Of a DNA stretch of 20,000 nt, positions 1,460 to 20,000 are shown piece after piece (position 1 is the first letter of the stretch; each line of letters starts with the position of its first letter). A program made the position numbers and the translations under genes. This DNA is from Chiloscyllium plagiosum. Its lineage: Eukaryota. The notes below the pieces were generated by a model, which worked only from the letters and a program-made list of their open reading frames with translations, was not told where the DNA came from and made no database searches. The stretch spans positions 31,504,152-31,524,151 of the forward strand of contig NC_057719.1 of NCBI RefSeq assembly GCF_004010195.1, in the 5' to 3' direction.

Positions 1460-2131
1460 AACCTTTAAATAGCTGGAGAATAGCTTCATGTTGATGTCCA
1501 GTGAGAATAGTCATAAATTAATAGTAACTCACTTGTGAAGTCAAATAAAAGCTGGAGTTATTTGTGAAGTCAAATAAATGCAGCATTTTAAATATTCAAA
1601 CTTGCTTTGCATTCCAGTGAGGTATAATTATACTGTAAAAAGAAACATGCATTACAAATAATATGTGCATTTTGTTCATATTTAGAAGGAAACATTCATT
1701 TCTGTCTTCTCCTTATGATTGATCCATGTTAATTAATATGTTTCTGTCAACATTAGAAATCAAAAGAAGATTAAGCCCAGGGTGCTTTTGCTCTCCATAT
1801 GAAAATACTAAAACTTAAAAGTATGATTTGAAGGTTTTTTTTGATTTATTCATTTTGTGGGATGTAGGCAATGCTGGCTGGTCAACATTTATGGCCCATC
1901 CCTAGTGGCCCTTGAGAAGGTGGTAGTGAGCTGCCTTCTTGAACTGCTGCAGTCCACTTGCTGTGGGTTGACCTACCATGTCATCAGGGAGGGAATTTCA
2001 GGATTTTTGACTCAGCGACAGTGAGGGAATAGTGATATATTTCCAAGTCAGGATGATGATTGGCTTGGAGGCGAACTTGAAGGTGGTGGTGTTCTTGAAT
2101 ATCTGTTGCCCTTGTCCTTCTAGATGGAAGT

Positions 2132-2725
2132 TGTTATGGACTAGGCCAGACCACCCCCCTCCCCACAAAGCCTTACAAGAAGGTAGCCCAGACCCTAACT
2201 TTACTAGTTGTTTAAGCAAGTGTAAGGTGGGTATTCCAAGACAGAATCAGTTGGTCAAACCACTTAGTTTTAAACAAAACAGAATGTATTTATAAAATTA
2301 CCAAATGAAACACAAAGAACAAAAACAGAATATCAAATAACTTATCCGAAAACCCAACAAATCATCACTCTTAATGATGCTGTTCGAAAATACTTGCAAC
2401 AGTCTCCATAAACACCCCTTGGCACAAAAGGTAAAATCAAACACAAGTTCTTACAAGATGGGAGTCAGTGAAAGAGAACCAGCCTGAGCTTGCTTTCGAA
2501 TTCCAGCAGAGTTTCTACACAACTATTTCTAAAAGAAACCAAACCAGAGAAAAACTGAGCTGGGAAAACTTGAAAGCTTTCTGCCTGCGGCAGTATCTGT
2601 TAGCTGTAAACAAGTTGGCCTTAAAACCCATCCAAACTCAGACTTTTCAGAACTTGTGTTTTTACGACCTCTTGAAGAAAAAACCAAGGACAACCTAACC
2701 TTGTTAAAGGAGCAGCTTCATCACG
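2132..2725. mobile_element. Solo LTR inserted in the LINE
   Basis: Begins TGTTATGG and ends TCATCACG (imperfect inverted termini, terminal CA read as CG). AAGT is duplicated at 2128-2131 and 2726-2729, or GAAGT if the element ends at 2724. The host LINE resumes after it. About 594 bp with no credible ORF. Confidence 0.7.
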
Positions 2726-3645
2726 AAGTGGTCATGAGTTTGGGCGGTGCTGTGTGAGGACCTTTGGTGAATTTCTGCAGTGCATCTTGTAGATCCTGCT
2801 GCTACTGAGCATTGGTAGTGGAGGGAGTGGATGCTTATAAGGCTACATATGAGTCAAGTGGCTGCTTTGTCCTGAATGGAGTCAAACTTCTTGAGTGTTG
2901 TGGGGACAGCACTCATCCAGGCAAGTGAGGAGTATTCCATCACACTCCTGAATTGAGGCTTGTAGGTGATGAGGAGTTAGGTGAGTTACTCGCCACAGTA
3001 TTCCTGGCCTCTGACCAGCTCTTGTAGCTGTTGTATTTATGTGGTGAGTTCAGTTGAGTTTCTGATTAATGATAACGTGCATGATGTTGATAGTGCGGGA
3101 TTCGGTGTTGGTAATACCATTGAACATCAAGGGGCGGTTGTTAGGTTGTCTTTTGTTAGTGATGGTCATAGCCTAGCACTTGTGTGGCACAAATGATACT
3201 TGCCACTGGTTAGTCTCAGCCTAGATATTGTCCAGAGCTTGTATTTGGACATGGATCGCTTCAGTGTCTGAGGAGTCGCGAATGGTGCTGAACATTGTGC
3301 AGTCATCAACGAACATCCCTACTTCTGACGTTATGATGGTGGGAAAGTCATTGAGGCAGCTGAGGATGTTTGGGCCTAGAACACTATCCTGAGGAACTCC
3401 TGCAGAAATGTCCTGGAGCTGAGATGACTAATCTCCAGTAATCGCAACCATCTTCCTATGTGTCAGGTATGACTCTAACCTCCAGAGAGTTTTCCCTGTG
3501 ATACTCAGTGATTCTAGTTTTGCTAGACCTCCATAATGCCACACCTGGTCAAACGTAGCCTTGATGCCAAGGGCTGTTTGTTCGTTTTTGAACCAAAGTT
3601 GTCAGGAGCTGAATGGCCGTGGCAGAACCCAAACTGGGCATCACT

Positions 3646-3841
3646 GGTTTGTTCAATTCAGTTGCATGACACTGTAATCATTTGCAATAAATTCTGTGTC
3701 TTATAATCCTGCTCCACAGCTACCTGATGAAGGAGCAGCACCTCGAAAGTTAGTACTTCCAAATAAACCTGTTGGAATATAACCTGGTGTTATGTGATTT
3801 TTTTACTGTGTTCCCCCAGTCCAACACCGGCACATCCACAC
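3646..3841 (+). mobile_element. Short Penelope-like element 3' end (pLTR) with degenerate hammerhead core
   Basis: CATCACT is duplicated at 3639-3645 and 3842-3848. Contains CTGATGAAGGAGCAGCACCTCGAAAG and is clearly similar to the right arm of 6451-6671. Confidence 0.75.
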
Positions 3842-5953
3842 CATCACTATGCAAGTTATTGCTGAGCAGGTATTGTTTGATAGCACTGTTGATGAAACTT
3901 TCCATCCCTTTTACTGATGATTGACAGTAGACTGATCGGGCAGTAATTGGCTGGGTTGAATTTGTCCTTCTTTTTATGTACTTGGGTAGTTATCCACATT
4001 GTCGAGTAGATGCCAGTGTTGTAACTGTATTCGAAGAGTTTGACTAGGGGAACGGCAAGTTCTGGAGAATAAGTCTTTAGGATTATTGCCGGAATGTTGT
4101 AGCCTTTGCAGTATCCAGTGCCTCCAAGTGTTTTTTGATGTCACATGGAGTAAATTGAATTGGCTGAAGAACCTGGTATCTATAATGCAGGGACTATTGG
4201 ATGGGGACCGAGATGGATCATTCACTCGGCACTTCTGGCTGTAGATTATTGCAAAATCTTCAGCCTTATCTTTTGCACTGATGTACTGGGCTCTTCTGTC
4301 ACTGAGTTTAGGGATATTTATAAAGATGCCTCTTCCAGTGAGTTGTTTAATCATTCATCACCATTCATGACTGGATGTGGCAGGACTGCAGAGCTTAGAT
4401 CTGGTCCGTTGGTTGTGGGATCGCGTGGCTCTCTCTATTACTTACTGCTTATATTTTTTGGTATGCAAGTAGTCCTGTTTGGTGGCTTCACCAGGTTGAC
4501 TCCTCATCTTCAGGTATGCTGGTGCTGGTTCTGGCATGCCCTCATGTACTCTTTGTTGAACCAGTGTTCATTCCCTGGCTTGACATTCATGCTTGAATGG
4601 GGAATATGCTGGGTCATGAATTAGAATTTGCGATGGAGTACAATGCTGCTGCTGTTAATGACCCACAGCACCTCCATGGATGCTCAGTCTTGAGTTGCTG
4701 GATATCTTTGAAGCGTGTCCCATTTGTCTCAACAAGAACTGTTGCTCTTACCGATACTATCATGGACAGATGCATCTGCAGCTGGCAGATTGGTAAGGAT
4801 GAAGTCAAGTATGTTTTTCCCTCACCACCTGTCCCAGCCCTAGTCTAGCAACTATGTCTTTCAGGACCCGATCAGCTCAATCAGTAGTACTTCTGCCGAG
4901 CTACTCTTAATGGTGGACATTGAAATCCCCTACCCAGAATACATTGTGTGTATTCCTCAGTGCTAACCTCAGTGCTTCCCCCAAATGTTGTTCAACATGG
5001 AGGAGTATCGATTCATCGTCTGAGGAAGGATGGTACGTGCTAATCAGCAGGAGGGTTCCTTGCCCACGTTTAACTTGAAGCCATAAGACCTCATGATGTT
5101 CCAGAGTCAATGTTGAAGACTCACCGAGCAACTACCTCCTGACTGTGTAGCACTGTGTGGCCACCTCTGCTGGATCTGCCTTGCAGGTGAGACAGGATAT
5201 ATCCAGGGATGGTGATGGTGGTATCTGTGACATTTTCTCTCAGGCATGATTCTGTGAGTATGACTATGTCAGGCTATTGTTTACCAGTCAATGAGAAAGC
5301 TATCCCAATTTTGGCACTAGACTCCAGATGTTAGGAGAACTTTGCAGGGTCAACAAGGCCATTTCTGCCACTGTCTTTTTCGGTGCCTAGGTGGATGTCA
5401 GGTGATTCTATGGTTTCATTTCTTTGAGACCTTGTAATTCGTACAACCGAATGGCTTGCTGGGCCATTTCAGAAGGCGGTTGAGAGTCAATCACATTGTT
5501 GTGGGTTTGGAGTTCCATGTAGGCCAGAGCAGACGAGGATGGCAAATTTCCTTCCCTTAAGGACATTTGTGAACCAGATGGGATTTTCTGACAGTTGGCA
5601 TTGATTTCACGGTCATCAGTGAATGTTTTTTTTATATAGATATTTTTATTAGAAATTTAACATTTTTACAAGTTTACAAAAATAAACAAAACTTCAGATA
5701 TAAACATTGATATACAATTAGCTCAAATATACAATATCCAAAATTTAACAAAAAAAACAAAAAAAAAACAAAAAATAAGAAAAAATAACAAACAAAACTC
5801 AACTATCTACTAATCTAACCTACAACTAACCAGAGTGTATATTTAAGTCTCTTACGTGCTCGGAATGTGTTAACATCAGATGTAATAAAACCCGTATTCG
5901 TGCGGAATTCCTCCCCCCGAGGGGCCCCGGATCAGCCAGGTTTGTAATCTCAA

Positions 5954-6128
5954 TTAAATAAAAGCCCTTGTTAGGATAGCCGAAATATCTGTATTTATGT
6001 AATTCAAGAAGGGCTGCCATATTTTATAAAATAATTCGGTCTTTCTGTGCACCATATTTGTAAGGAAGTCAAGGGGAACACATTCCATAATTAATCTGTG
6101 CCAATTGAAAGTCCAGGGGGCCCTCAGC
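5954..6128 (-). pseudogene. C-terminal remnant of L1 ORF2p
   Basis: NWHRLIMECVPLDFLTNMVHRKTELFYKIWQPFLNYINTDISAILTRAFI*, homologous to the ORF2 end of the other L1 at about 17190-17360 (DWRKLVIEHIPLD…WPFLNYLGTDLSTIIIRAFI*). Confidence 0.8.
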
Positions 6129-6450
6129 GGCTTGTTGCTTTTTAAAGAGGGAATGTATTTACAATGCTTTAGTCTTGATTATATTTGTAACTTCAACCTT
6201 TTAATTTTTAAATAAGGCACTCTGCTATCTATAGATCACTATAACTCTACTCACAGAAACTGATGCTGCTGATCGTCCAAAGTCTCTAACATACAGAAGT
6301 GTTGTCCAGTTGGTCTTCAATTAGTTTTCTAAAGATCTATCTCAAAGACTTTGGAGACTTGTATGTTTTAAATAGCCAGTGCTGCAAACCACATGGTGAT
6401 TTTACGTTGATCAGGACATTTTACTTGTAACATAAATAAAACTGGACATA

Positions 6451-6671
6451 ATTAAAAATCACACAACACCAGGTTATAGTCCAACAGGTTTAATTGGAAG
6501 TACACTAGCTTTCGGAGCGACACTCCTTCATCAGGTGATAGCACTACCACCTGATGAAGGAGCGTCGCTCCGAAAGCTGGTGTGCTTCCAATTAAACCTG
6601 TTGGACTATAACCTGGTGTTGTGTGATTTTTAACTTTGTACACCCCAGTCCAACACCAGCATCTCCAAATC
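6451..6671. mobile_element. Short palindromic Penelope-like element (inverted partial pLTRs)
   Basis: AAAACTGGACATA is duplicated at 6438-6450 and 6672-6684. Arms of about 85 bp (6452-6537 and 6548-6633) are near-perfect reverse complements around a 10-nt spacer, followed by a roughly 38-nt tail on one side. Each arm holds CTGATGA-stem-GAAA. Confidence 0.85.
6506..6580. ncRNA. Pair of divergently oriented minimal hammerhead motifs
   Basis: Plus: CAC-CTGATGA-A-GGAGC-GTC-GCTCC-GAAAGCTG-GTG (core from 6551). Minus: CAC-CTGATGA-A-GGAGT-GTC-GCTCC-GAAAGCTA-GTG. AGCT palindrome and 3-bp stem I in both. Confidence 0.6.
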
Positions 6672-8079
6672 AAAACTGGACATAGGTATCGAGGCACTAA
6701 AGAATCCAGCAAGTATTTCTGACAACTAATGATTACGTGCATAATTTACTCTCTTCAGAGTCTAGGATAGCATTAGCTATTAAGCTGCAAACACCAGCAT
6801 CCTTCCTGTGATCCCAAAATAAGATGGAATGAGATCTTTATCCTCCAGGCACATGTTATGATACAGTATACTGACTGTGACATATAACAGTACTGAAACC
6901 TCCACAAAGTCAGCTGTGGAAGCACCACATTTGCTGAGAAAATCCTGCAATTTTGCTTCAGACAATGTAACATCTCAACTTCAAAACTACACATCTGCAT
7001 CAAAACAACAGAGACTGAACTTGGCAATTTTTATTGAATACTCATTTTTATCTTCGTCTGTAATTAATAATTGTGTGCATGTGAATAGTGTATTATCATT
7101 ACTAACCTCCAGAATAAGTGTGTAGGTTATTTAAAAGTGAATTTCTCCAGCTATGAGTAAGAAATATACATACCTACATACAAAACCATTGATCACGGGC
7201 AATGAGGGAGGAGCCACTTTAAAACTTTACATGACACAAGAGTCCAACTGAGTGGTTCAAAAATTTAAAAGGGATTGGGACAGAAAGTATTGAAAGATCT
7301 TCCAAGGACACATACAGAGCCGGACCTCAGTGTAGCCTGTTCTTTTAAATACACAACTGGCCACAGACTCCTAATATTTCAAGTTTTGAATTAAAGTAAC
7401 TAAATCCCGAGTTTGTCAGGGATCATTTGTTAATTTCCTGTCTGAAGGAAGAGAGCAGAGAACTGTTCACTTTCATCGTCTGTTTGCTGAGTGAGAAGTA
7501 AGATCAGTTCTATCCACATTTGTACAAGCTTTAGACTAGTGTAATACCAAACCAGACTAAAAGTGCCACCACCCAGGTCAGGAATCTCTGACATATAATT
7601 TATTTATCGTCAAGAAGGATTTAATCAAAGCAAAGTAAATTTGGACCTTAACACTTGTTCATAAATTCACATTTTATCTCTAAACTAAAGCTTCATAATG
7701 ATTTGGATTCGTCTCATCTCCTCTAATATATCTCTATGTCCACCTCCTGAAAGTACACACAAGGAATGTGTGAAAACACACCACTCCAAAAAAAACCCCG
7801 CTCCTATAGACAGAGGTAAAATTGAATAAGGTAACCACCTCCCCCCACCAACATTAACCAAATCCCCCAGCTTTTATATGTATATACACACACATATGCA
7901 TACATCCCTCATATATACATAAAATAATAACAGAAAACAACCCCACCGGGGGGGATAAAATCAAATCCCTCTCCCCACCCCCCATGATAATATTAAACAG
8001 TAAGGTAAGAGAAAAAAAAAGGGGGGATATAAACCAAAGTGGGGGGAAAGGCAAACCAACATCCATTATGTCTTACAGT

Positions 8080-8933
8080 TTATCTAAGAGAGTCCAAGAA
8101 TTCCTTAGCCTTTTCTGGTGATCCGAAGTTATATACGGATCCTTCATGGTTAAAGCATAACGTCGCTGGGTAGCGTAAGGAGTACTGAATATTTAAGTCC
8201 CTTAAACGCTTCTTCGCCTCGTCGAATGCCTTCCTCTTTTGAACCAGAGCCGGGGAAATGTCCTGAAATAGCATGATCTTGGATCCTTTATAGATCATAG
8301 CTTGGGGGTCTTTTCTGAGATTTCTAGAGGCTTCTAGAAGTATTTGCCTCTCCTTGTAGCTCTGCAGCCGGAACAGGACCGGGCGTGGGCGCTGGTTCGA
8401 GCCGGGCCCGCATATTGCGACCCGGTAGGCTCATTCCACCCTTATGGCCTGATCCAGCTTGCAGATTTAAAAGCTGTGGCAGCCACTGCTGGAGGAATGC
8501 TGTAAGCTGGCCTTCCTCTTCCCGTTCGGGAAGGCCCAGCAAACGAATATTTTTTCGACGACCTCGATTATCGAGGTCGTCAATATGATTTTCCAAGGTC
8601 CGAACTCGCTGCTCGAGAGTCCGGACCTGATCCACGGTCGATTGATGGTAGTTTCGGAGGTTGCGGCCTTTAACTCCGCCCCTCCGACTCGGCACTCGAT
8701 TTCTTGGATTTCTTGGTCGTGCTTCTGCAGCGCGGCCGAGAGCGAGTCCCAATGATTTCTGGATTCTGCAATAAAGGCATCGATCTTCGAATCCAGCTTG
8801 GAAATCATTTCTGCAAGGCTTGTCACTGTAGGTAAGTCCCACGGGGCGGCTGTGGACGCCTCTGCTGCAGCTGGAGAGGATGGGGGAGGGGTCCTGCTTG
8901 CTGAGAGCTGCGGGCTCCCTTCCCTTTAGTCAT
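8080..8933 (-). pseudogene. L1 ORF1p (coiled coil, RRM, CTD), frameshifted
   Basis: ATG at 8933 (MTKGKGARS…). Pieces in ORFs 8467-8826, 8324-8842 and 8080-8298 join to …LENHIDDLDNRGRRKNIRLLGLPEREE…RPRPVLFRLQSYKERQILL…IMLFQDISPALVQKRKAF…YSLRYPATL…, hallmark L1 ORF1p motifs. About three frameshifts. CpG-rich. Confidence 0.88.
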
Positions 8934-9085
8934 TTTTACTTAGGATCAAATTGTTTAAATGTAATATTACACAACTAATTAAATTTCACAACTTTTATAG
9001 ATGATTTGGTGAGCGTGGTAGGGGGTGGGTGACCCACTGTACCCAAGTCTTGGGAGGAGCACTATAGACTCAGTCTTGCTGGGTC

Positions 9086-9097
9086 GCCGCCATCTTG
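9086..9097 (-). promoter_or_regulatory. YY1-type motif at the L1 5' end (internal promoter)
   Basis: CAAGATGGCGGC a few bases from the element start. L1 5' termini are known to carry a YY1 site. Function here is inferred. Confidence 0.55.
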
Positions 9098-9102
9098 GAT
9101 CC

Positions 9103-9250
9103 CATCAGTGGATTCTTAATTCCAGATTTATTTTTTTCTTTATTGAATTCAAATTCCACCATTTGCCGTGCTGGGATTCAAACCTGGGACCCCACAACAT
9201 TGTCTGGGTTTGTGGATTAATAGTGTAGTGATAATACCACGAGGCCTTAC
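9103..9250 (-). mobile_element. tRNA-like (Pol III) head, contiguous with 5621 and below once the L1 insertion is removed
   Basis: A-box-like AGGCCTCGTGG (9247-9237) and B-box-like GGTTTGAATCC (9184-9174). Joined to the 5448-5621 body through the CATCAGTG duplication. Confidence 0.7.
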
Positions 9251-9323: not shown

Positions 9324-9406
9324 GTGGGTGCAACAGTGAGAGTGAGGATGAAGTTATCAGAAGACCTTATAAAAGAATTAAAGTTGGTGTTCTGGAATCG
9401 CCTGAA
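9324..9406 (+). CDS. FANCM: FANCM internal coding exon (83 nt, phase 1 to phase 0)
   Basis: Acceptor TTGCTTTCCTCAG, donor GTGAGT. Translates xGCNSESEDEVIRRPYKRIKVGVLESPE, resembling human FANCM SESEDEIFRRKVKRAKGNVLNSPE (recalled). In frame with the next three exons. Confidence 0.88.
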
Positions 9407-11184: not shown

Positions 11185-11607
11185 GTATGTAAATAATTTA
11201 ATTCTAGGGGAACATATAGTATATATATCTGTTTAATAGGTTTGAAATGGTACTGGGATTTGAGCTGAAAATGTGTTGCTGGAAAAGCGCAGCAGGTCAG
11301 GCAGCATCCAGGGAACAGGAGAATCGACGTTTCGGGCATAAGTCCTTCTTCAGGAATGAGGAAAGTTTGTCCAGCAGGTTAAGATAAAAGGTAGGGAGGA
11401 GGGACTTGGGGGAGGGGTGTTGGAAATGTGATAGGTGGAAAGAGGTCAAGGTGAGGGTGATAGGTCGGAGTGGGATGGGGGCGGAGAGGTCAGGAAGAAG
11501 ATTGCAGGTTAGGAAGGTGGTGCTGAATTCGATGGATTTGACTGAGACAAGGTGGGGGGAGGGGAAATGAGGAAACTGGTGAAATCCGAGTTCATCCCTT
11601 GTGGTTG

Positions 11608-11836
11608 NNNNNNNNNNNNNNNNNNNNNNNNNNNNNNNNNNNNNNNNNNNNNNNNNNNNNNNNNNNNNNNNNNNNNNNNNNNNNNNNNNNNNNNNNNNNN
11701 NNNNNNNNNNNNNNNNNNNNNNNNNNNNNNNNNNNNNNNNNNNNNNNNNNNNNNNNNNNNNNNNNNNNNNNNNNNNNNNNNNNNNNNNNNNNNNNNNNNN
11801 NNNNNNNNNNNNNNNNNNNNNNNNNNNNNNNNNNNN
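11608..11836. other. Assembly gap (229 N)
   Basis: Run of N at the centre of the inverted repeat. Confidence 1.
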
Positions 11837-11963
11837 CCCCACCCCAATCTGTCCTATCACCCTCACCTTGACCTTTTTCCACCTATCACATTTCCGACGC
11901 CCCTCCCCCAAGTCCCTCCTCCCTACCTTTTATCTTAGCCTGCTGGACAAACTTTCCTCATTC

Positions 11964-11991
11964 CTGAAGAAGGGCTAATGCCCGAAACGTC
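11964..11991 (+). ncRNA. Minimal type I hammerhead ribozyme motif (Penelope-type)
   Basis: CTGAAGA-A-GGGC-TAAT-GCCC-GAAA-CG-TC: intact core, 4-bp stem II, ACGT palindrome, GUC cleavage triplet. The mirror copy on the minus strand at 11326-11353 has one stem II mismatch. Confidence 0.7.
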
Positions 11992-12196
11992 GATTCTCCT
12001 GTTCCCTGGATGCTGCCTGACCTGCTGCGCTTTTCCAGCAACACATTTTCAGCTCTGATCTCCAGCATCTGCAGACCTCACTTTCTCCTACTGGGATTTG
12101 AACCCATTATTCATTATTATAGGGGTTAAAGTCAACTGTGTCACTGAATGTTTTCTAATTATATTTGGGAGTTTGCCTCGATATTTCTTAGAAGTA

Positions 12197-12986: not shown

Positions 12987-13091
12987 TTAGGCTTCACAGA
13001 CAGTGAAGATGATGATTTTAAAGAAACTTCAAGCAAGAATAATAATGGTGCCAAATTGTTTAGAAATATTCATCAATCCCGGAGGCGAGAG
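12987..13091 (+). CDS. FANCM: FANCM internal coding exon (105 nt, phase 0 to 0)
   Basis: Acceptor CTTAATTTCTCAG, donor GTAGGT. Translates LGFTDSEDDDFKETSSKNNNGAKLFRNIHQSRRRE, an acidic-then-basic stretch with no stops that bridges the flanking exons in frame. Confidence 0.8.
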
Positions 13092-13724
13092 GTAGGTACA
13101 GTTTTAGTTGCATATTCAATTACTGCAATATGCAGTATTTGATCTATTTTAGAAGTTGTAGACCACTGATTTGGTATAAGATGTATTATTATCACACAGG
13201 ACCAGTACAAACACCTGATATTTTTAGAACAAATTAAAGATTTTACAAAATTAGTTATTGGATAGTTAAAGAATTTATAATTTTTGAATTTGATAACCTT
13301 TGAATTTGATTTGTGCAATTTAAAAAAAAAAAATGGCTGCCATGGAAATGTTGCCTTGGGCAAATCATGTTGCTTTCAAGTTGCTGTATTCATATAAATG
13401 AATTATCTAACTTCTCTGGCAGAATAATCACAAGATTTGAGTATAAGAGAATGAACATGTTTATTCCAAGGCATTTTTTCCTTTAGCCACTTTTCCCTTC
13501 AGCCACTAATAACTAAACTGTTGATTATAATCTGTTCTGTAGGTTACAAGTAAATAACTTTACCATGTTAAATTTTCTACCCCTAAATGCAAACAAAGTG
13601 GTGAGTGTATTAAAAACAAGATTACTATAGAAGCCATGGTAAAATGGTATGCTTTTGGTTTTCGATTCTCATCTGATTACAGCTAGTCAATGTTCCATGC
13701 TACACTGATTGGTTTTAAAAATTA

Positions 13725-14831
13725 ATCCCTACACTCATCCCTGGAACACCTAGGCAGCATTAGATGCCTGCTAATCGATTGTAGCTCAGCCTTCAACACC
13801 ATTGTCCCCTCCAGACTGACCTCAAAACTCTGAGACCTCTGCCTCAGCTCCACCTTCTGCAACTGGATCCTTAGCTTTCTGACCCACTGACTACAAGCAG
13901 TGAAGATAGACAATTGCACCTGCTCCACAATAGCACTGAACACGAGTCCCCCCAACCCCCATCCAAGGATATGTTCTCAGCCCCCTGCTGTAATCCCTGT
14001 ACACCCATGACTCTGTTGCCAAATTATGAATGAATGCCATCTTCAAATTTGCTGATGACACGACTGTGGTAGGACAGAAATCAAACAACGATGAGTCAGA
14101 ATACAGAAAGGAGATAGAGGGCTTGATGATGGGGTGCATTGAGAATAACCCCTCTCTCAATTTCGGCAAAACTAAAGAACTGAACATTGACTTCTGAAAG
14201 AAGCTCCCAGCTACATTAATGCAGCTGAGGTTGAGAGGGTGGAGACTGTAAAGTGCCTAGGAGTGGCAATAACTGACAATCTATCCTGGACTTTCCACAT
14301 AGATGCGACGGTCAAGAAGGCAGCTCAGGAAATTTAGCATGTCCTCAAGGTCCCTCACCAACTTTTACAGATGCACCATAGAAAGCAAAGTATCTGGATG
14401 CATAACGACCTGATAGGGCAACTACTCTGCCAAAAAACTACAGAAGTTTGTATACACAGCCCAGACCATTACAGAAGCCAACCTTCCACCCATGGACTCC
14501 ATTTACATGCGGAAAGGCTGCCAATATCATCAAAGAGCCATCGTGCCCCAGTATTGCTCTCCTTCAACCTCTTCTGTCAGGCAGAAGATAGAGATGCTTG
14601 AATGCATGGGCCAGCTTCTTCCCTGCTGTTGTTAGACTGATGGATGGACTCTCTAACTTGCTAATGTTGATCTTGCCTAGTGCACGCCCTGTGCGATTTA
14701 ACCTATATGTCTTTGTCCAAGTTTCTTTTTTACCTTATGATCTGTATGTTCTTGCTTAGTATGCCTGGACTGCTCTTAAATAAAGCTTTTCACTGTATTT
14801 AGATACATGTGATAATAAATCAGTCAATCAA
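13725..14831 (+). mobile_element. 5'-truncated Rex1/Babar-like LINE (RT fragment plus 3' UTR)
   Basis: HSSLEHL…CLLIDCSSAFNTIVPSRL…CNWILSFLT, PQGYVLSPLL*SLYTHD and IFKFADDTTVVG are Rex1-type RT motifs. Ends AATAAATCAGTCAATCAA. Confidence 0.85.
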
Positions 14832-15070
14832 CCTGGGCTGATCTATATCCAATCCTTTGTCTGTCCAACTCTTTTTTTTCTTCTTCTTTTTCTGTGAGTT
14901 CTATCTCCATTTATCATTTAGTGTTCACCCTATCTTCTACATAAAAAAAAAATCCTTTTCCTAACTACCATCAGTTCTGAAGAAGGGTCACTGGATTCGA
15001 AACGTTAACTCTGATTTCTCTTCTCAAATGCTGCCAGATCTGAAAATTTCCAGCAATTTCTTTGGTTGAA
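14832..15070 (+). mobile_element. Decayed Penelope-like pLTR fragment (third family)
   Basis: Hammerhead core followed by ATGCTGCCAGATCTG…TTTCCAGCAA, similar to ATGCTGCCTGACCTG…TTTCCAGCAA at 12010-12040. Confidence 0.6.
14973..15010 (+). ncRNA. Minimal hammerhead ribozyme motif (Penelope-type)
   Basis: AGTT-CTGAAGA-A-GGGTC-ACTG-GATTC-GAAA-CG-TT-AACT: 4-bp stem I (AGTT/AACT), stem II with G-U pairs, ACGT palindrome. Confidence 0.65.
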
Positions 15071-15075
15071 TCTGA

Positions 15076-15188
15076 ATTGCTTTCTGAAATGGCCTAGCAA
15101 GCCACTCACCTTAAATGCAATTAGGGACAGGCAGTAATTGCTGGCCTTAGCAGTGATGCCCACTTCCCATGAACTTTGAATTAAATAA
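15076..15188 (+). mobile_element. Short SINE-like 3' fragment joining the 5' body and 3' tail of the 1835-9250 LINE family
   Basis: 15076-15108 matches the reverse complement of about 5449-5481, and 15110-15188 matches the reverse complement of about 1845-1915. Confidence 0.7.
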
Positions 15189-15559
15189 CGAACCAGTTGG
15201 ACAGCCATTGTAACAAAATTGATCAAGGCTTCTTTTTACCAGTGTAAAACCAAGTAGCCTGAATTATGAAGTTGTTATGGGCGAAGTAAGATTGGATCTG
15301 GAAAAATTCAAAGTTGAGAGGAATGATTTATTTTAACCTGGCACTCAAATGATCTTCTATGCATATAATTACTGCAACAACACATTACATTTGTATGGAA
15401 ATTTTAAATAATAAAGTACCTTGAGGCACTAAATTTAACTTTAGCACTTTCTGACATAAGAATTCAATTGTGGAAAACTATTATGAACTTCTGCAGAATG
15501 TTTAGTGTGGCATTTTTTCCAATCTAATTCTTTGTGCAGATTTGCAAGAGTAAGAAAAT

Positions 15560-16135
15560 GACATGTGACACATCCCACATTCTTGATGACCTGAAATCTT
15601 TTGTCTTAACTGCTTTTAAGTGGAGGCAAATGCAGCAACAAATCTGTGCAATGTTCCCATGATGTCCTGTTGATATGTTACTTGATTGTTGACCAAGACA
15701 TGGGGACACAAGGCAGCACAGTGATTAGCATTGCTGCCTCACAGCACTAGGATCCCAGGTTTGATTCATCTCCATCTGTATGGAGCTTTCATGTTCTCTC
15801 CACTGCTGCGTGTGTTTCATCCAGGTGCTCCGGTTTCCTCCCACAGTTCAAAGATGTGCAGGTTAGGTGGATTGGCCATGTTTAAAAAATAATTGCCTGT
15901 AGTATCCAATATGCAGGTTTGATGGTTAGCCATGGTAAAAACCCCAGTGTTGGGGGTAGGGCGTGTCTGGGTGGCATCCTCTTTGTGCACTGTGGGAGTC
16001 CTATGATTCTATGAAAATGTTTGAGTAGACTCATAGGATCTTTTGCATCCATGTGGTCAAGCAGATGGGTCGCGCTTTAACACGTCATCCAAAAAAGTAA
16101 TCCGATGTCCCCACCTAAATTATGTGTTCAAGCCT
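15560..16135 (-). mobile_element. Old Deu-domain SINE remnant (SacSINE1/AmnSINE1-like) split by the V-SINE
   Basis: GGATCTTTTGCATCCA…TTTAACACGTCATCCAAAA…ATTATGTGTTCAAG (16037-16130) and GCAGCAACAAATCTGTGCA (about 15632-15650) resemble the reverse complement of the Deu domain as recalled. Highly diverged. Confidence 0.4.
15711..16013 (+). mobile_element. tRNA-derived V-SINE (HE1-like)
   Basis: Head GGCAGCACAGTGATTAGCATTGCTGCCTCACAGC…GGTTTGATTC, V-domain GGTGCTCCGGTTTCCTCCCACAG…AAAGATGTGCAGGTTAGGTGGATTGGCCATG, tail CTATGATTCTATG. Confidence 0.8.
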
Positions 16136-16352: not shown

Positions 16353-16506
16353 CATGTTGCTCGACAGTTTCTTGATGAAGAGGCTGAGCTTTCCTTGGAT
16401 GGAGCTGAATATGTGTCCTCCGATGAAGATGACTGTGACAATATCAACGATGATTCTTTGAAAGGTTTCATAAATGATGAATCTCAGCTTTCACAAGTTA
16501 TAAGTG
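16353..16506 (+). CDS. FANCM: FANCM internal coding exon (154 nt, phase 0 to 1), conserved acidic motif
   Basis: Acceptor GTTTATTTTTAG, donor GTAAGA. Translates HVARQFLDEEAELSLDGAEYVSSDEDDCDNINDDSLKGFINDESQLSQVIS, close to human FANCM HVARKFLDDEAELSEEDAEYVSSDEND…FLNDETQLSQAIN (recalled). Confidence 0.93.
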
Positions 16507-16889: not shown

Positions 16890-19581
16890 TCTTTTTAATG
16901 TATTTTTATGAAAAAAACATTTTTTTTTCTTTTGAGTATTACAACAAATACAAAACCAAACAATTCAAACTAATATTAAAAAACAAACCTGTTAATTACA
17001 TAAATATCAACTAATAACTAAGCTAAAAAAGAAAAGTCTTAACAATAGTAATAATGATAACCATTACACAGCTCAGCAAAACAAAGCAATAGCCCTCGAT
17101 CATCGAACGCATGAATTTATACACCTTCATATGTTTGTAGTTCCTCCCCTCTGGATACCAGATTCTTTACATAGAATTGCCATAGCTATATAAAGGCTCT
17201 TATTATTATGGTGGACAAATCTGTACCCAGGTAGTTCAGAAAGGGCCACCATGTCTTATAGAAATTCAGTTTTATGGTGCACCATAGTCTGAAGGAGGTC
17301 CAAGGGGATGTGCTCTATGACCAGCTTACGCCAGTCTGCCAGCCCCAGGGGATCTTCTGACACCCACCCTAATTGAGTGTTCTTTCTGGCAAAAAAAAGT
17401 ATACTGAAAAGCCTTATTTTGTGTCTGTCTGATTAAAGTGAATTAACAAAGCCACGAAAAAGAGATACCAGGTCCATCTCCAACTCCGTCCCCAAGACCT
17501 CCTCTATTTCGCCTACCATAGCATTCCAGTATGCTCACAGTCTGTGGCAGGACCAAAGACAATGAGTAAGAGTGCCCAAGCTCACTTTACATTTAGGAGA
17601 CCTTGGAGATGTTCCCGCTTTAAATTTAGCAAGGTGGTCTGGGGCTAGATGGACCTTGTAGAGAATCTTCAATTGCAAGATGTGGGTCCTTTGCAAATCG
17701 AGTCCTTGTTGCATTTTCCCAGATATCCTCCCATATTTCAGAAGAGATCTCAACGTCCAATTCCCTCTCCCATATCTTACAGAGTCGTTCAGTCTCGTCC
17801 AAGGGACCCTCTCCCAATAGATGATAAGCGTTGCTAACAGATAATGTATCCTCAGCACTCAACCCCCTCTTCTCCATGTCGCACCTATAAGAATCAGTTA
17901 GAAGTCTGGTCTCTTTTTGTGTGAAGTTTCTAATTTGAAAGAAACAAAGGAGGTCCATACTGGACAATTCAAATTTCAAGCCAACTGGTCAAAGGATATA
18001 AATGTGTCCCCTTCGAATAAATCACCCAGGTAAGACATGCCCCTAGCTGCCCATAGTTTAAACCCAGAGTCCATTATCCGTGGCTGAAAGCCCAGCATGT
18101 CAAAAATGATGTTTTGGCAATATTGCCCTCACTCTAATGCATTGCCCTCCACGCCTTGACACTATTGGGCTATGGCAATATTCCTTAATTGTTCTCATTT
18201 TGTCTAAGAACAGAAGGCTAATAAGGGGGCATCTTGTCTGAGATGCTTTGATTTCCAACCAAAGTGAGTGAGGGTCCCCCGGCCCATTCGTTCACGTAAG
18301 ATAGCAAGGAGTTTAACAGATTAGTTTTTGATATCTGGGAGGCCCACTCCTCCCAGTCTGTAAGGTAACTGCAATTTAGTCAGTTTAATTAGGGGCCGCT
18401 TACGATCCCAGATAAAAGAACTAAACCAGCCGCTCAGTCTTCTAAATATTTGCTTAGGAAAAAGTAGAGGAAACATTCGCATAGGATACAACAGGCAGGG
18501 CTGAATGTTCATTTTAATGAGGGCCATTTGACCTAACCAAGAAATTGGAAGTACCTCCCATTTACGAAGGTCCTGCTTGATTCTGTTGATTAAATGGGCA
18601 AAATTGGCTTTAAATAGCTGATCAAAAATGGGAGTAATAAGTATACCTAAGTAGAGAAAGCCTTCTTGCGACCATCTGAAGGGGAACCGTGATCCACCCT
18701 CCGGATCAGGCATGGCCATGGGTATGGCTTCTTGCTTCCCAAACTGTTTTTATAACCTGAGAAGATTGACACATTGTCTCAGGTGTGGCACTGAGACTGT
18801 TGGGTTTGTTAAGAAGACGAGAATGTCATCCACATACAGTGCAATCTTGTGTGACTTTGTCCCCACTTCTGGAGTGGTTATTTTGGATTCCCTGCATATT
18901 GCCTTCGCCAGCAGTGCAATCACCAGTGGTGACAAGGGACAGCCCTGTCAACAACCCCTACAAATATTAAAATTGCTTGACCGTACACCATTGGTGAGAA
19001 CCGCGGCAAGAGGTTCACTATACAAAACCTCCACCCACCAGATGAAGGTCTCTCCCAGGCCAAACTGCTTCAAAGTATGAAAAAGATATGGCCACTCAAC
19101 CCTGTCAAATGCCTTTTTCCTATCGAAGGAAATCATCTATCCCTGTACTGATTGCTGTTGACATACTTGGATCATGTTAATTAATCTCCTGACATTATCT
19201 GTTGATCTGCGACCTTTTATGAACTCTATCTGATCCTCCTCAATTGTGGAGGGCAGTACAGCTTCTAGCCTTAATGCCAGAGTCTTGGACAGGATTTTGA
19301 AGTCGACATTCAGGAGTGAAATGGGTCAATAGGAAACACAGTCCTCTGGAGCCTTCCCTTTTTTAAGAACGAGAGAGATGTTCGTCTTTCTTAGAGATGG
19401 GGTAGGAGGCCACGACAATGTGAGTCATTAAACCTACTAATCATTGGCCCTGACAATATTCTTATAAATTCCTTATAGAACTCAGTGGGGAGCCCGTCAG
19501 GACCCATTCTGGAACTGTCTCACAGCTTCCTGCACCTCTTGTTCTGACAATGGGGCCTTGAGAGATTCTTGATGGGAAGGG
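16890..19581 (-). mobile_element. L1-clade LINE ORF2 (RT plus C-terminal CCHC) and 3' UTR, decayed
   Basis: [71 protein letters not shown], ending …IIIRAFI*. T-rich 3' end at about 16890-16933. Confidence 0.9.
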
Positions 19582-20000
19582 TGAGAGCAGTAACAAATTA
19601 AAAATACTATACATGAATGCACGAAGCATTAGACATAAGATGGATGAGCTTGAGGCTCTTCTGGAAATTGGCAGATACGATATTGTGGTGATAACTGAGA
19701 CGTGGCTTCAAGTGGACAGGGTCTGGGAAATGAATATTCAAGGCTACACGTGCTATCTTAAGGACAGATTGACGGGCAGAGGGGGTGGGGTGGCCTTGTT
19801 GGTTAGGGAGGATATTCAGTCCCTTGCGCGGGGAGATCTAGAGTCAGGGGATGTAGAGTCAGTGTGGATAGAGCTACGAAATACTAAGGGTAAAAAGACC
19901 CTCTTGGGAGTCATCTACAGGCCCCCAAACAGTAGTCTGAATGTCGGATGCAAGTTAAATCAGGAGCTGAAATTGGCCTGACGCAAAGATGTCACTACAG
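19582..20000 (+). mobile_element. CR1 LINE ORF2 APE endonuclease start, running off the window end
   Basis: ORF 19613-19981: MNARSI…YDIVVITETWL…GYTCYLKDR…GGGVALLVR…ESVWIELRN…GVIYRPPNS, with a premature TGA at 19979-19981. Confidence 0.9.

Follow-up and report, generated by a model that had tools for sequence, protein, structure and literature searches.

A tRNA-like head opens the elasmobranch Zenon-1 LINEs, as traced from a decayed copy in Chiloscyllium plagiosum

Short interspersed elements (SINEs) are defined as non-coding units that RNA polymerase III (Pol III) transcribes, and long interspersed elements (LINEs) as coding units transcribed by RNA polymerase II (Pol II). BovB, a lineage-specific element of the RTE clade, was reportedly recognized by Walsh et al. 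in 2013 as an autonomous LINE with a SINE-derived 5′ end. Here we analyze a stretch of 20,000 nucleotides from Chiloscyllium plagiosum (the window, at its full length; NCBI RefSeq assembly GCF_004010195.1, contig NC_057719.1, positions 31,504,152 to 31,524,151 of the forward strand), in which a minus-strand LINE runs from position 9250 to position 1835 and opens with a tRNA-like head. The element is a dead copy of an elasmobranch Zenon-1 LINE, interrupted three times, with a head, a body, a linker and an APE endonuclease in that order and without a first open reading frame (ORF1). Its tRNA-like head holds up as a trait of this whole published LINE family, one that seems so far to have gone without comment.

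The closest described systems are the elasmobranch Zenon-1 LINEs themselves (PMC13343379; Stuart et al. 2026), which have the same 5′ sequence, a length of ~3.3 kb, only an APE-reverse transcriptase (RT) frame and a poly(A) end, and from which this copy differs only by its decay and its three inserts. According to the main text of that paper, no Zenon has an ORF1 and each of them ends in poly(A), and the elasmobranch consensus sequences are more than 84% alike and cluster with crustacean elements. The family and its ORF1-less build are already known, and the absence of an ORF1 here is therefore not surprising; on a tRNA head the main text is silent, with no occurrence of “tRNA” or “Deu” and a single one of “SINE”, in a reference title. 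No description of a tRNA-headed Zenon was found in the literature searched, the scope of which excluded subscription journals, Repbase, Dfam and SINEBase. A preliminary description of the window had compared the element with CR1/L2-group LINEs and had left it open whether repeat libraries already held the family; by the features compared here, the element falls in the Zenon clade and not in canonical CR1 or L2, and consensus sequences for it have been published in PMC13343379.

Three other systems are similar in part. The crocodilian Tx1-Mar elements Tx1-2_Crp and Tx1-11_Crp (Kojima 2015, PMC4494074) likewise carry a small-RNA-derived head at the LINE 5′ end, in common with a SINE family. However, the U1/U2 heads of Tx1-Mar have no internal promoter and SINEU has oligo-T, whereas the Zenon head has A and B boxes and few T runs. 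Persaeus (PMC6740152) is likewise a short mobile element made of the 5′ and 3′ parts of a Zenon but shows neither tRNA likeness nor a Pol III promoter. In bipartite SINEs such as Bov-tA and SINE2-1_ACar (RTE- and Vingi-derived; Kojima 2018, PMC5786205), body and tail correspond to LINE sequence from its 5′ and 3′ regions, the presence of LINE 5′ parts in SINE bodies being reported there for RTE and Vingi only. In those cases the tRNA head came onto the element after its deletion and the LINE carries none, whereas in Zenon the full-length LINE itself is headed.

The preliminary description had read 9250 to 1835 as one minus-strand unit once an L1-like insert is removed, and had found no space in it for an ORF1. 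Both readings were borne out. With three inserts, each flanked by a target-site duplication (TSD), spliced out, the unit measures 3126 nt and consists of a tRNA-like head, a body, a linker, an APE-RT frame that is broken, and AATAAA followed by poly(A); the leader from the head to the APE start is only 417 nt long. The unit, its inserts and a related short copy are laid out as follows.

9174..9250, minus strand: tRNA-like head, with an A-box-like site at 9247-9237, an anticodon-arm-like stretch at 9228-9212 and a B box at 9184-9174
9111..9173, minus strand: 5′ part of the non-coding body; the match to the consensus resumes across the L1-like insert
5622..9102, minus strand: L1-like insert, with an exact 8-bp TSD at 5614-5621 and 9103-9110
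5449..5621, minus strand: 3′ part of the body, not a Deu domain; matches RhiTyp_Zenon-1 from 5582
5347..5448, minus strand: linker between body and APE, present in the consensus sequences and multi-copy at 5360 and 5398
4802..5346, minus strand: APE endonuclease, interrupted by stops and frameshifts (Pfam, colinear protein relative)
3849..4801, minus strand: middle of ORF2 and start of the RT, broken (tblastn with relatives of 940-983 aa)
3646..3841, strand unassigned: short high-copy insert, with a 7-bp TSD at 3639-3645 and 3842-3848
2730..3645, minus strand: RT core (3583-2951) and downstream ORF2 (Pfam, protein relatives)
2132..2724, strand unassigned: insert resembling a solo long terminal repeat, with a 5-bp TSD at 2127/2725; labelled from its TG start and short TSD alone
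1914..2131, minus strand: 3′ end of ORF2 (weak high-scoring segment pair, residues 931-958 of P0044 at 1997-1914)
1835..1913, minus strand: 3′ tail, with AATAAA at 1850-1845 and A8 at 1842-1835
15063..15190, plus strand: 5′-truncated short form, in which the final 45 nt of the body run straight into a similar tail

The A8 run corresponds to the poly(A) tail of Zenon-1, and at the 1835 edge the depth of matching contigs in sequencing run X1 rises from 27 to 284,000. No TSD was found to enclose the whole 9250-1835 unit.

To place the element, we compared it by eye with ten Zenon consensus sequences from PMC13343379, over their first 400 letters only. The elasmobranch set comprises RhiTyp_Zenon-1, CarCar_Zenon-1, ScyCan_Zenon-1, HypSab_Zenon-1 and SquAca_Zenon-1/2/3, from the whale shark, great white shark, catshark, stingray and, with three sequences, spiny dogfish (2886-3314 nt). 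All seven open with the head and body and continue into the linker, and those of the stingray and dogfish-3 reach the APE start within this range. The match to a published consensus that membership of Zenon-1 implies is close: against RhiTyp_Zenon-1, 91 of 104 head letters (9246-9143) and 124 of 142 body letters (from 5582) are identical, which amounts to ~87% for head and body overall. The head was absent from the three non-elasmobranch Zenons (two hagfish, one coelacanth), although the coelacanth 5′ end is mostly in lower case and may be unreliable.

Four sequencing runs were also compared with positions 1700-5740 at 80% likeness, three of which (X1, X11 and X18) are contig runs, whose depth is not equal to copy number; the fourth, a raw RNA run (X22), gave 0 matching reads, which speaks neither for nor against expression. 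Depth in the flank bin was 27, 24 and 0 in X1, X11 and X18, respectively; across all 28 bins of 1835-5614 it was at least 1086, 1290 and 55, and in the junction bin (5345-5479) it reached 6059, 3879 and 293. At linker position 5398, 16, 18 and 2 contigs among the matches listed share a letter that the window does not have. Counting against the junction, no piece among the matches listed bridges the body/linker border at 5449. For this reason, and as depth is not copy number, the contig depths alone did not settle the matter. The same order in seven of seven elasmobranch consensus sequences, from five species, is what makes the head-body-APE junction a family trait and not a chance adjacency at this locus, in keeping with the preliminary reading; the linker is in addition multi-copy in all three contig runs. 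The junction pattern was found at no locus in viral and metagenome contigs, and a search for related loci in viral contigs returned no relative. The body-end motif had 0 viral, 2 genome and 13 metagenome contig hits, all 15 of them chance matches without likeness beyond the motif.

The preliminary description had further proposed an autonomous SINE-headed LINE. The head is indeed family-wide on a LINE with a single ORF; the family may no longer be active, an intact ORF2 being present in 0-3 copies per family where the values in PMC13343379 are readable (1 of 1419 long copies in the whale shark, and 0 of 2313, 3 of 612, 1 of 294, 0 of 59 and 0 of 396 in others, the SquAca_Zenon-1 value being unreadable). 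With 59 to 2313 long copies where readable, the elasmobranch Zenon family is abundant and mostly dead.

The head was scored with A- and B-box patterns. On the minus strand of this copy, the B box has one mismatch (9184-9174) and the A-box-like site two (9247-9237). ARAGORN called no tRNA gene anywhere in the window, and none of the nine Rfam matches in the window falls on the head; hence, the head of this copy is tRNA-like by motif only. The consensus sequences, again by eye, are better preserved. A perfect A box lies 5-10 nt from the start in all seven elasmobranch ones, a B box follows ~60 nt past it and is intact in six (HypSab is one base short), and an anticodon-like stem-loop, whose loop resembles AGT in three species, stands at tRNA-like spacing from the A box. 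SquAca_Zenon-2 and -3 (396 and 294 copies) have lost part of the cloverleaf or body and kept both boxes. The element thus has, by motif, the tRNA-derived head with A and B boxes of a SINE2 element, but it is neither short nor non-coding: the 3.1-kb unit codes for APE-RT. By every feature compared, it belongs to elasmobranch Zenon-1, and it is not a SINE.

Six pieces were scanned with Pfam, stops being read as X. RVT_1 was found above its curated cut-off at 3583-2951 (E=5.4e-9), and the APE at 5131-4802 gave two matches that stayed under theirs, Exo_endo_phos_2 (E=1.4e-4) and Exo_endo_phos (E=7.9e-4); the other four pieces gave no relevant Pfam match. A 962-aa protein relative is colinear with the unit from residue 36 (5315) to residue 958 (1914), and the RT comes closest to gene models of the whale shark and the horn shark (53-69%). 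As in Zenon-1, APE and RT belong to one ORF2, the frame of which is broken in this copy. Neither the middle of the ORF nor the body-linker frame had a match when searched against proteins.

How ORF2 would be translated is less straightforward. In the stingray consensus, which alone is both intact and readable as far as the APE, the APE frame is open by eye for ~40 basic-rich codons back to a stop, with no AUG. A conserved linker AUG (5419-5417 here) is out of the APE frame in six of the seven elasmobranch consensus sequences, and the two translated APE pieces of this copy contain no Met. The AUG at 5362-5360 was rejected as the ORF2 start because it is private to this copy, 2307 of a depth of 2367 reading another letter, and a 2A recoding motif was rejected because none was seen by eye in the leader frames. 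From the lack of an in-frame AUG before the APE, we infer a non-standard start: ORF2 would begin at a non-AUG codon, or via frameshift or reinitiation from the out-of-frame AUG. According to PMC3894237, how ORF2 is initiated is still an open question.

We see about an even chance that the A/B-box head serves as an internal Pol III promoter for the whole 3.3-kb Zenon-1 RNA. Pol III would start from the head boxes and transcribe the entire element, and it would read through since TTTT is almost absent from the sense strand. This copy has one TTTT and no TTTTT in 3119 letters, where 6.2 ± 2.4 TTTT are expected from single-letter shuffles (P=0.016) and 3.8 ± 1.7 from dinucleotide shuffles (P=0.07). 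In the first 400 letters, TTTT occurs in none of the seven headed consensus sequences vs all three headless ones. The conserved boxes and the scarcity of sense TTTT suggest Pol III transcription, the signal being marginal. The longer chain, in which a Pol III-made 3.3-kb coding RNA would be translated without a cap or an in-frame AUG, would yield a SINE by deletion of its middle and would have been kept across sharks and rays, is tentative and, taken as a whole, rather unlikely.

Several observations weigh against Pol III transcription of the coding RNA. Against dinucleotide shuffles the TTTT deficit fails to reach significance, the seven headed consensus sequences are related and not seven independent tests, and of the six LINE pieces of the window that served as controls, three likewise show 0-1 TTTT, these controls being only 0.4-1.0 kb long. 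Folding of this copy was no better than that of shuffles for either the head (z=0.79) or the leader (z=-0.54). Pol III RNAs carry no m7G cap, which is a real obstacle to translation. The same family might instead make its coding RNA as a capped Pol II transcript, from a promoter in the head or body or by read-through, with the boxes as passengers or of use to the short form only. Along with the weak TTTT statistics, the AATAAA ahead of the A-tail suits Pol II processing, LINEs are generally regarded as Pol II units (PMC5786205), and the crocodilian Tx1-Mar LINEs manage with U1/U2 heads that lack an internal promoter (PMC4494074). We find this explanation plausible though on balance doubtful, given that the consensus sequences start at a tRNA-like distance from a perfect A box, that both boxes persist in deleted subfamilies, and that ~10 upstream AUGs in the leader of this copy would hamper cap-dependent scanning.

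The origin of the head can be weighed in the same way. An ancestral Zenon would have gained it once, on the elasmobranch line, probably by template switching onto tRNA or SINE RNA, and before the shark-ray split if inheritance was vertical; horizontal arrival of a headed Zenon is possible, given the tree in PMC13343379. A short body-plus-tail form would then be an internal-deletion derivative behaving as a SINE, for which the lepidopteran Zenon that gave rise to Persaeus (PMC6740152) is a precedent. In the window, the short form at 15063-15190 is 82% alike over 45 nt to 5493-5449 of the body, and from it we infer that a full SINE family of such forms may exist; telling against this, the form is represented by one headless copy. 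Capture from a pre-existing SINE is nearly as likely as the deletion origin of the short form. In this reverse order, a tRNA-headed SINE with a Zenon tail came first and the LINE took head and body from a SINE donor, to which we give somewhat less than an even chance. It would agree with the headless Zenons of hagfish and coelacanth, with module exchange by template switch as the standard model (PMC5499810), and with the 13- to 23-fold excess of body over APE depth in X18 (5275 vs 227-434), as an abundant short form would give. However, copy number cannot be read from depth, the DNA runs show comparable depths for body and APE, and the sources consulted yielded no SINE with this body beyond the family. 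That the head and body are SacSINE1, a Deu-domain SINE, which would make the LINE 5′ region the source of the Deu domain, is very improbable. SacSINE1, a SINE of sharks, does bear a tRNA head and is about as long (PMC5499810), but the Deu alignment in Fig. S4 of PMC7245038 is unlike the body by eye, and two 15-letter Deu motifs had no match in the window at up to three mismatches (chance means 1.2 and 1.8). The body is not a Deu domain, so the SacSINE1 label fails; we rejected it on comparison with the printed AmnSINE1 and hagfish Deu stretch rather than with SacSINE1 itself. The Meta and UCON3 stretches of the same figure showed no likeness to the body by eye either. Body motifs had no body match in the papers and supplements searched beyond PMC13343379, one MetaSINE supplement file lying outside the search, and two 10-letter hits were discarded because they fall within a UCON3-type stretch that is unrelated. 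That the unit is a single chimera, or that its parts are neighbors by chance here, as the missing TSD around the whole unit might suggest, has a negligible probability: seven consensus sequences from five species show the same order, and the families whose values are readable have 59 to 2313 long copies each.

The later inserts are absent from other copies of the element in two cases: a joint from 3641 to 3851 is seen around the short high-copy insert (depth ~2 million in X1), and joints from 2131 to 2757-2764 bypass the insert at 2132-2724. The L1-like insert consists of an ORF1-like remnant (~8930-8080) and a 3′ end, with no ORF2 seen in the six-frame listing. Its label is weak (Tnp_22_dsRBD, E=0.13; an Atlas match of 0.90 ranked below other families), and we otherwise take it to be L1-like from its motifs, possibly a HAL1-like or internally deleted element. 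Within it lies a near-perfect palindrome (6443-6642, 99-nt arms, 93%), kin to the 3646-3841 insert, which has the look of a short, very high-copy repeat present twice, head to head. The miRNA-like Rfam matches at 6490-6595 are spurious products of this palindromic repeat.

Elsewhere in the window, the T-run controls were decayed LINE pieces with RT or APE matches, at 1-960, 13720-14650, 16900-19590 and 19595-20000, which we take from their motifs to be CR1-, L2- and L1-like. The plus strand carries another tRNA-like SINE of a different kind at 15700-16010, its boxes with two mismatches, which presumably resembles the shark HE1/V-SINE. Acidic exon-like pieces occur on the plus strand at 9326-9406, 12987-13091 and 16353-16505, and the Zenon head is antisense to the first and ~70 nt from it; they are reminiscent of FANCM, and Pfam gave no confirming match. 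An inverted pair with 224-nt arms (95%) at 11257-12060 surrounds an N gap and is probably an inverted repeat that broke the assembly.

If the head is only a passenger, the finding amounts to a detail for the annotation of a family already published. If the head is the promoter of the coding RNA, a SINE-type promoter on a full APE-RT frame would blur the line between SINEs and LINEs, deletion would offer a one-step route to new SINEs in which the addition of a head is unnecessary, and the family would provide a natural example of a Pol III-made mRNA.

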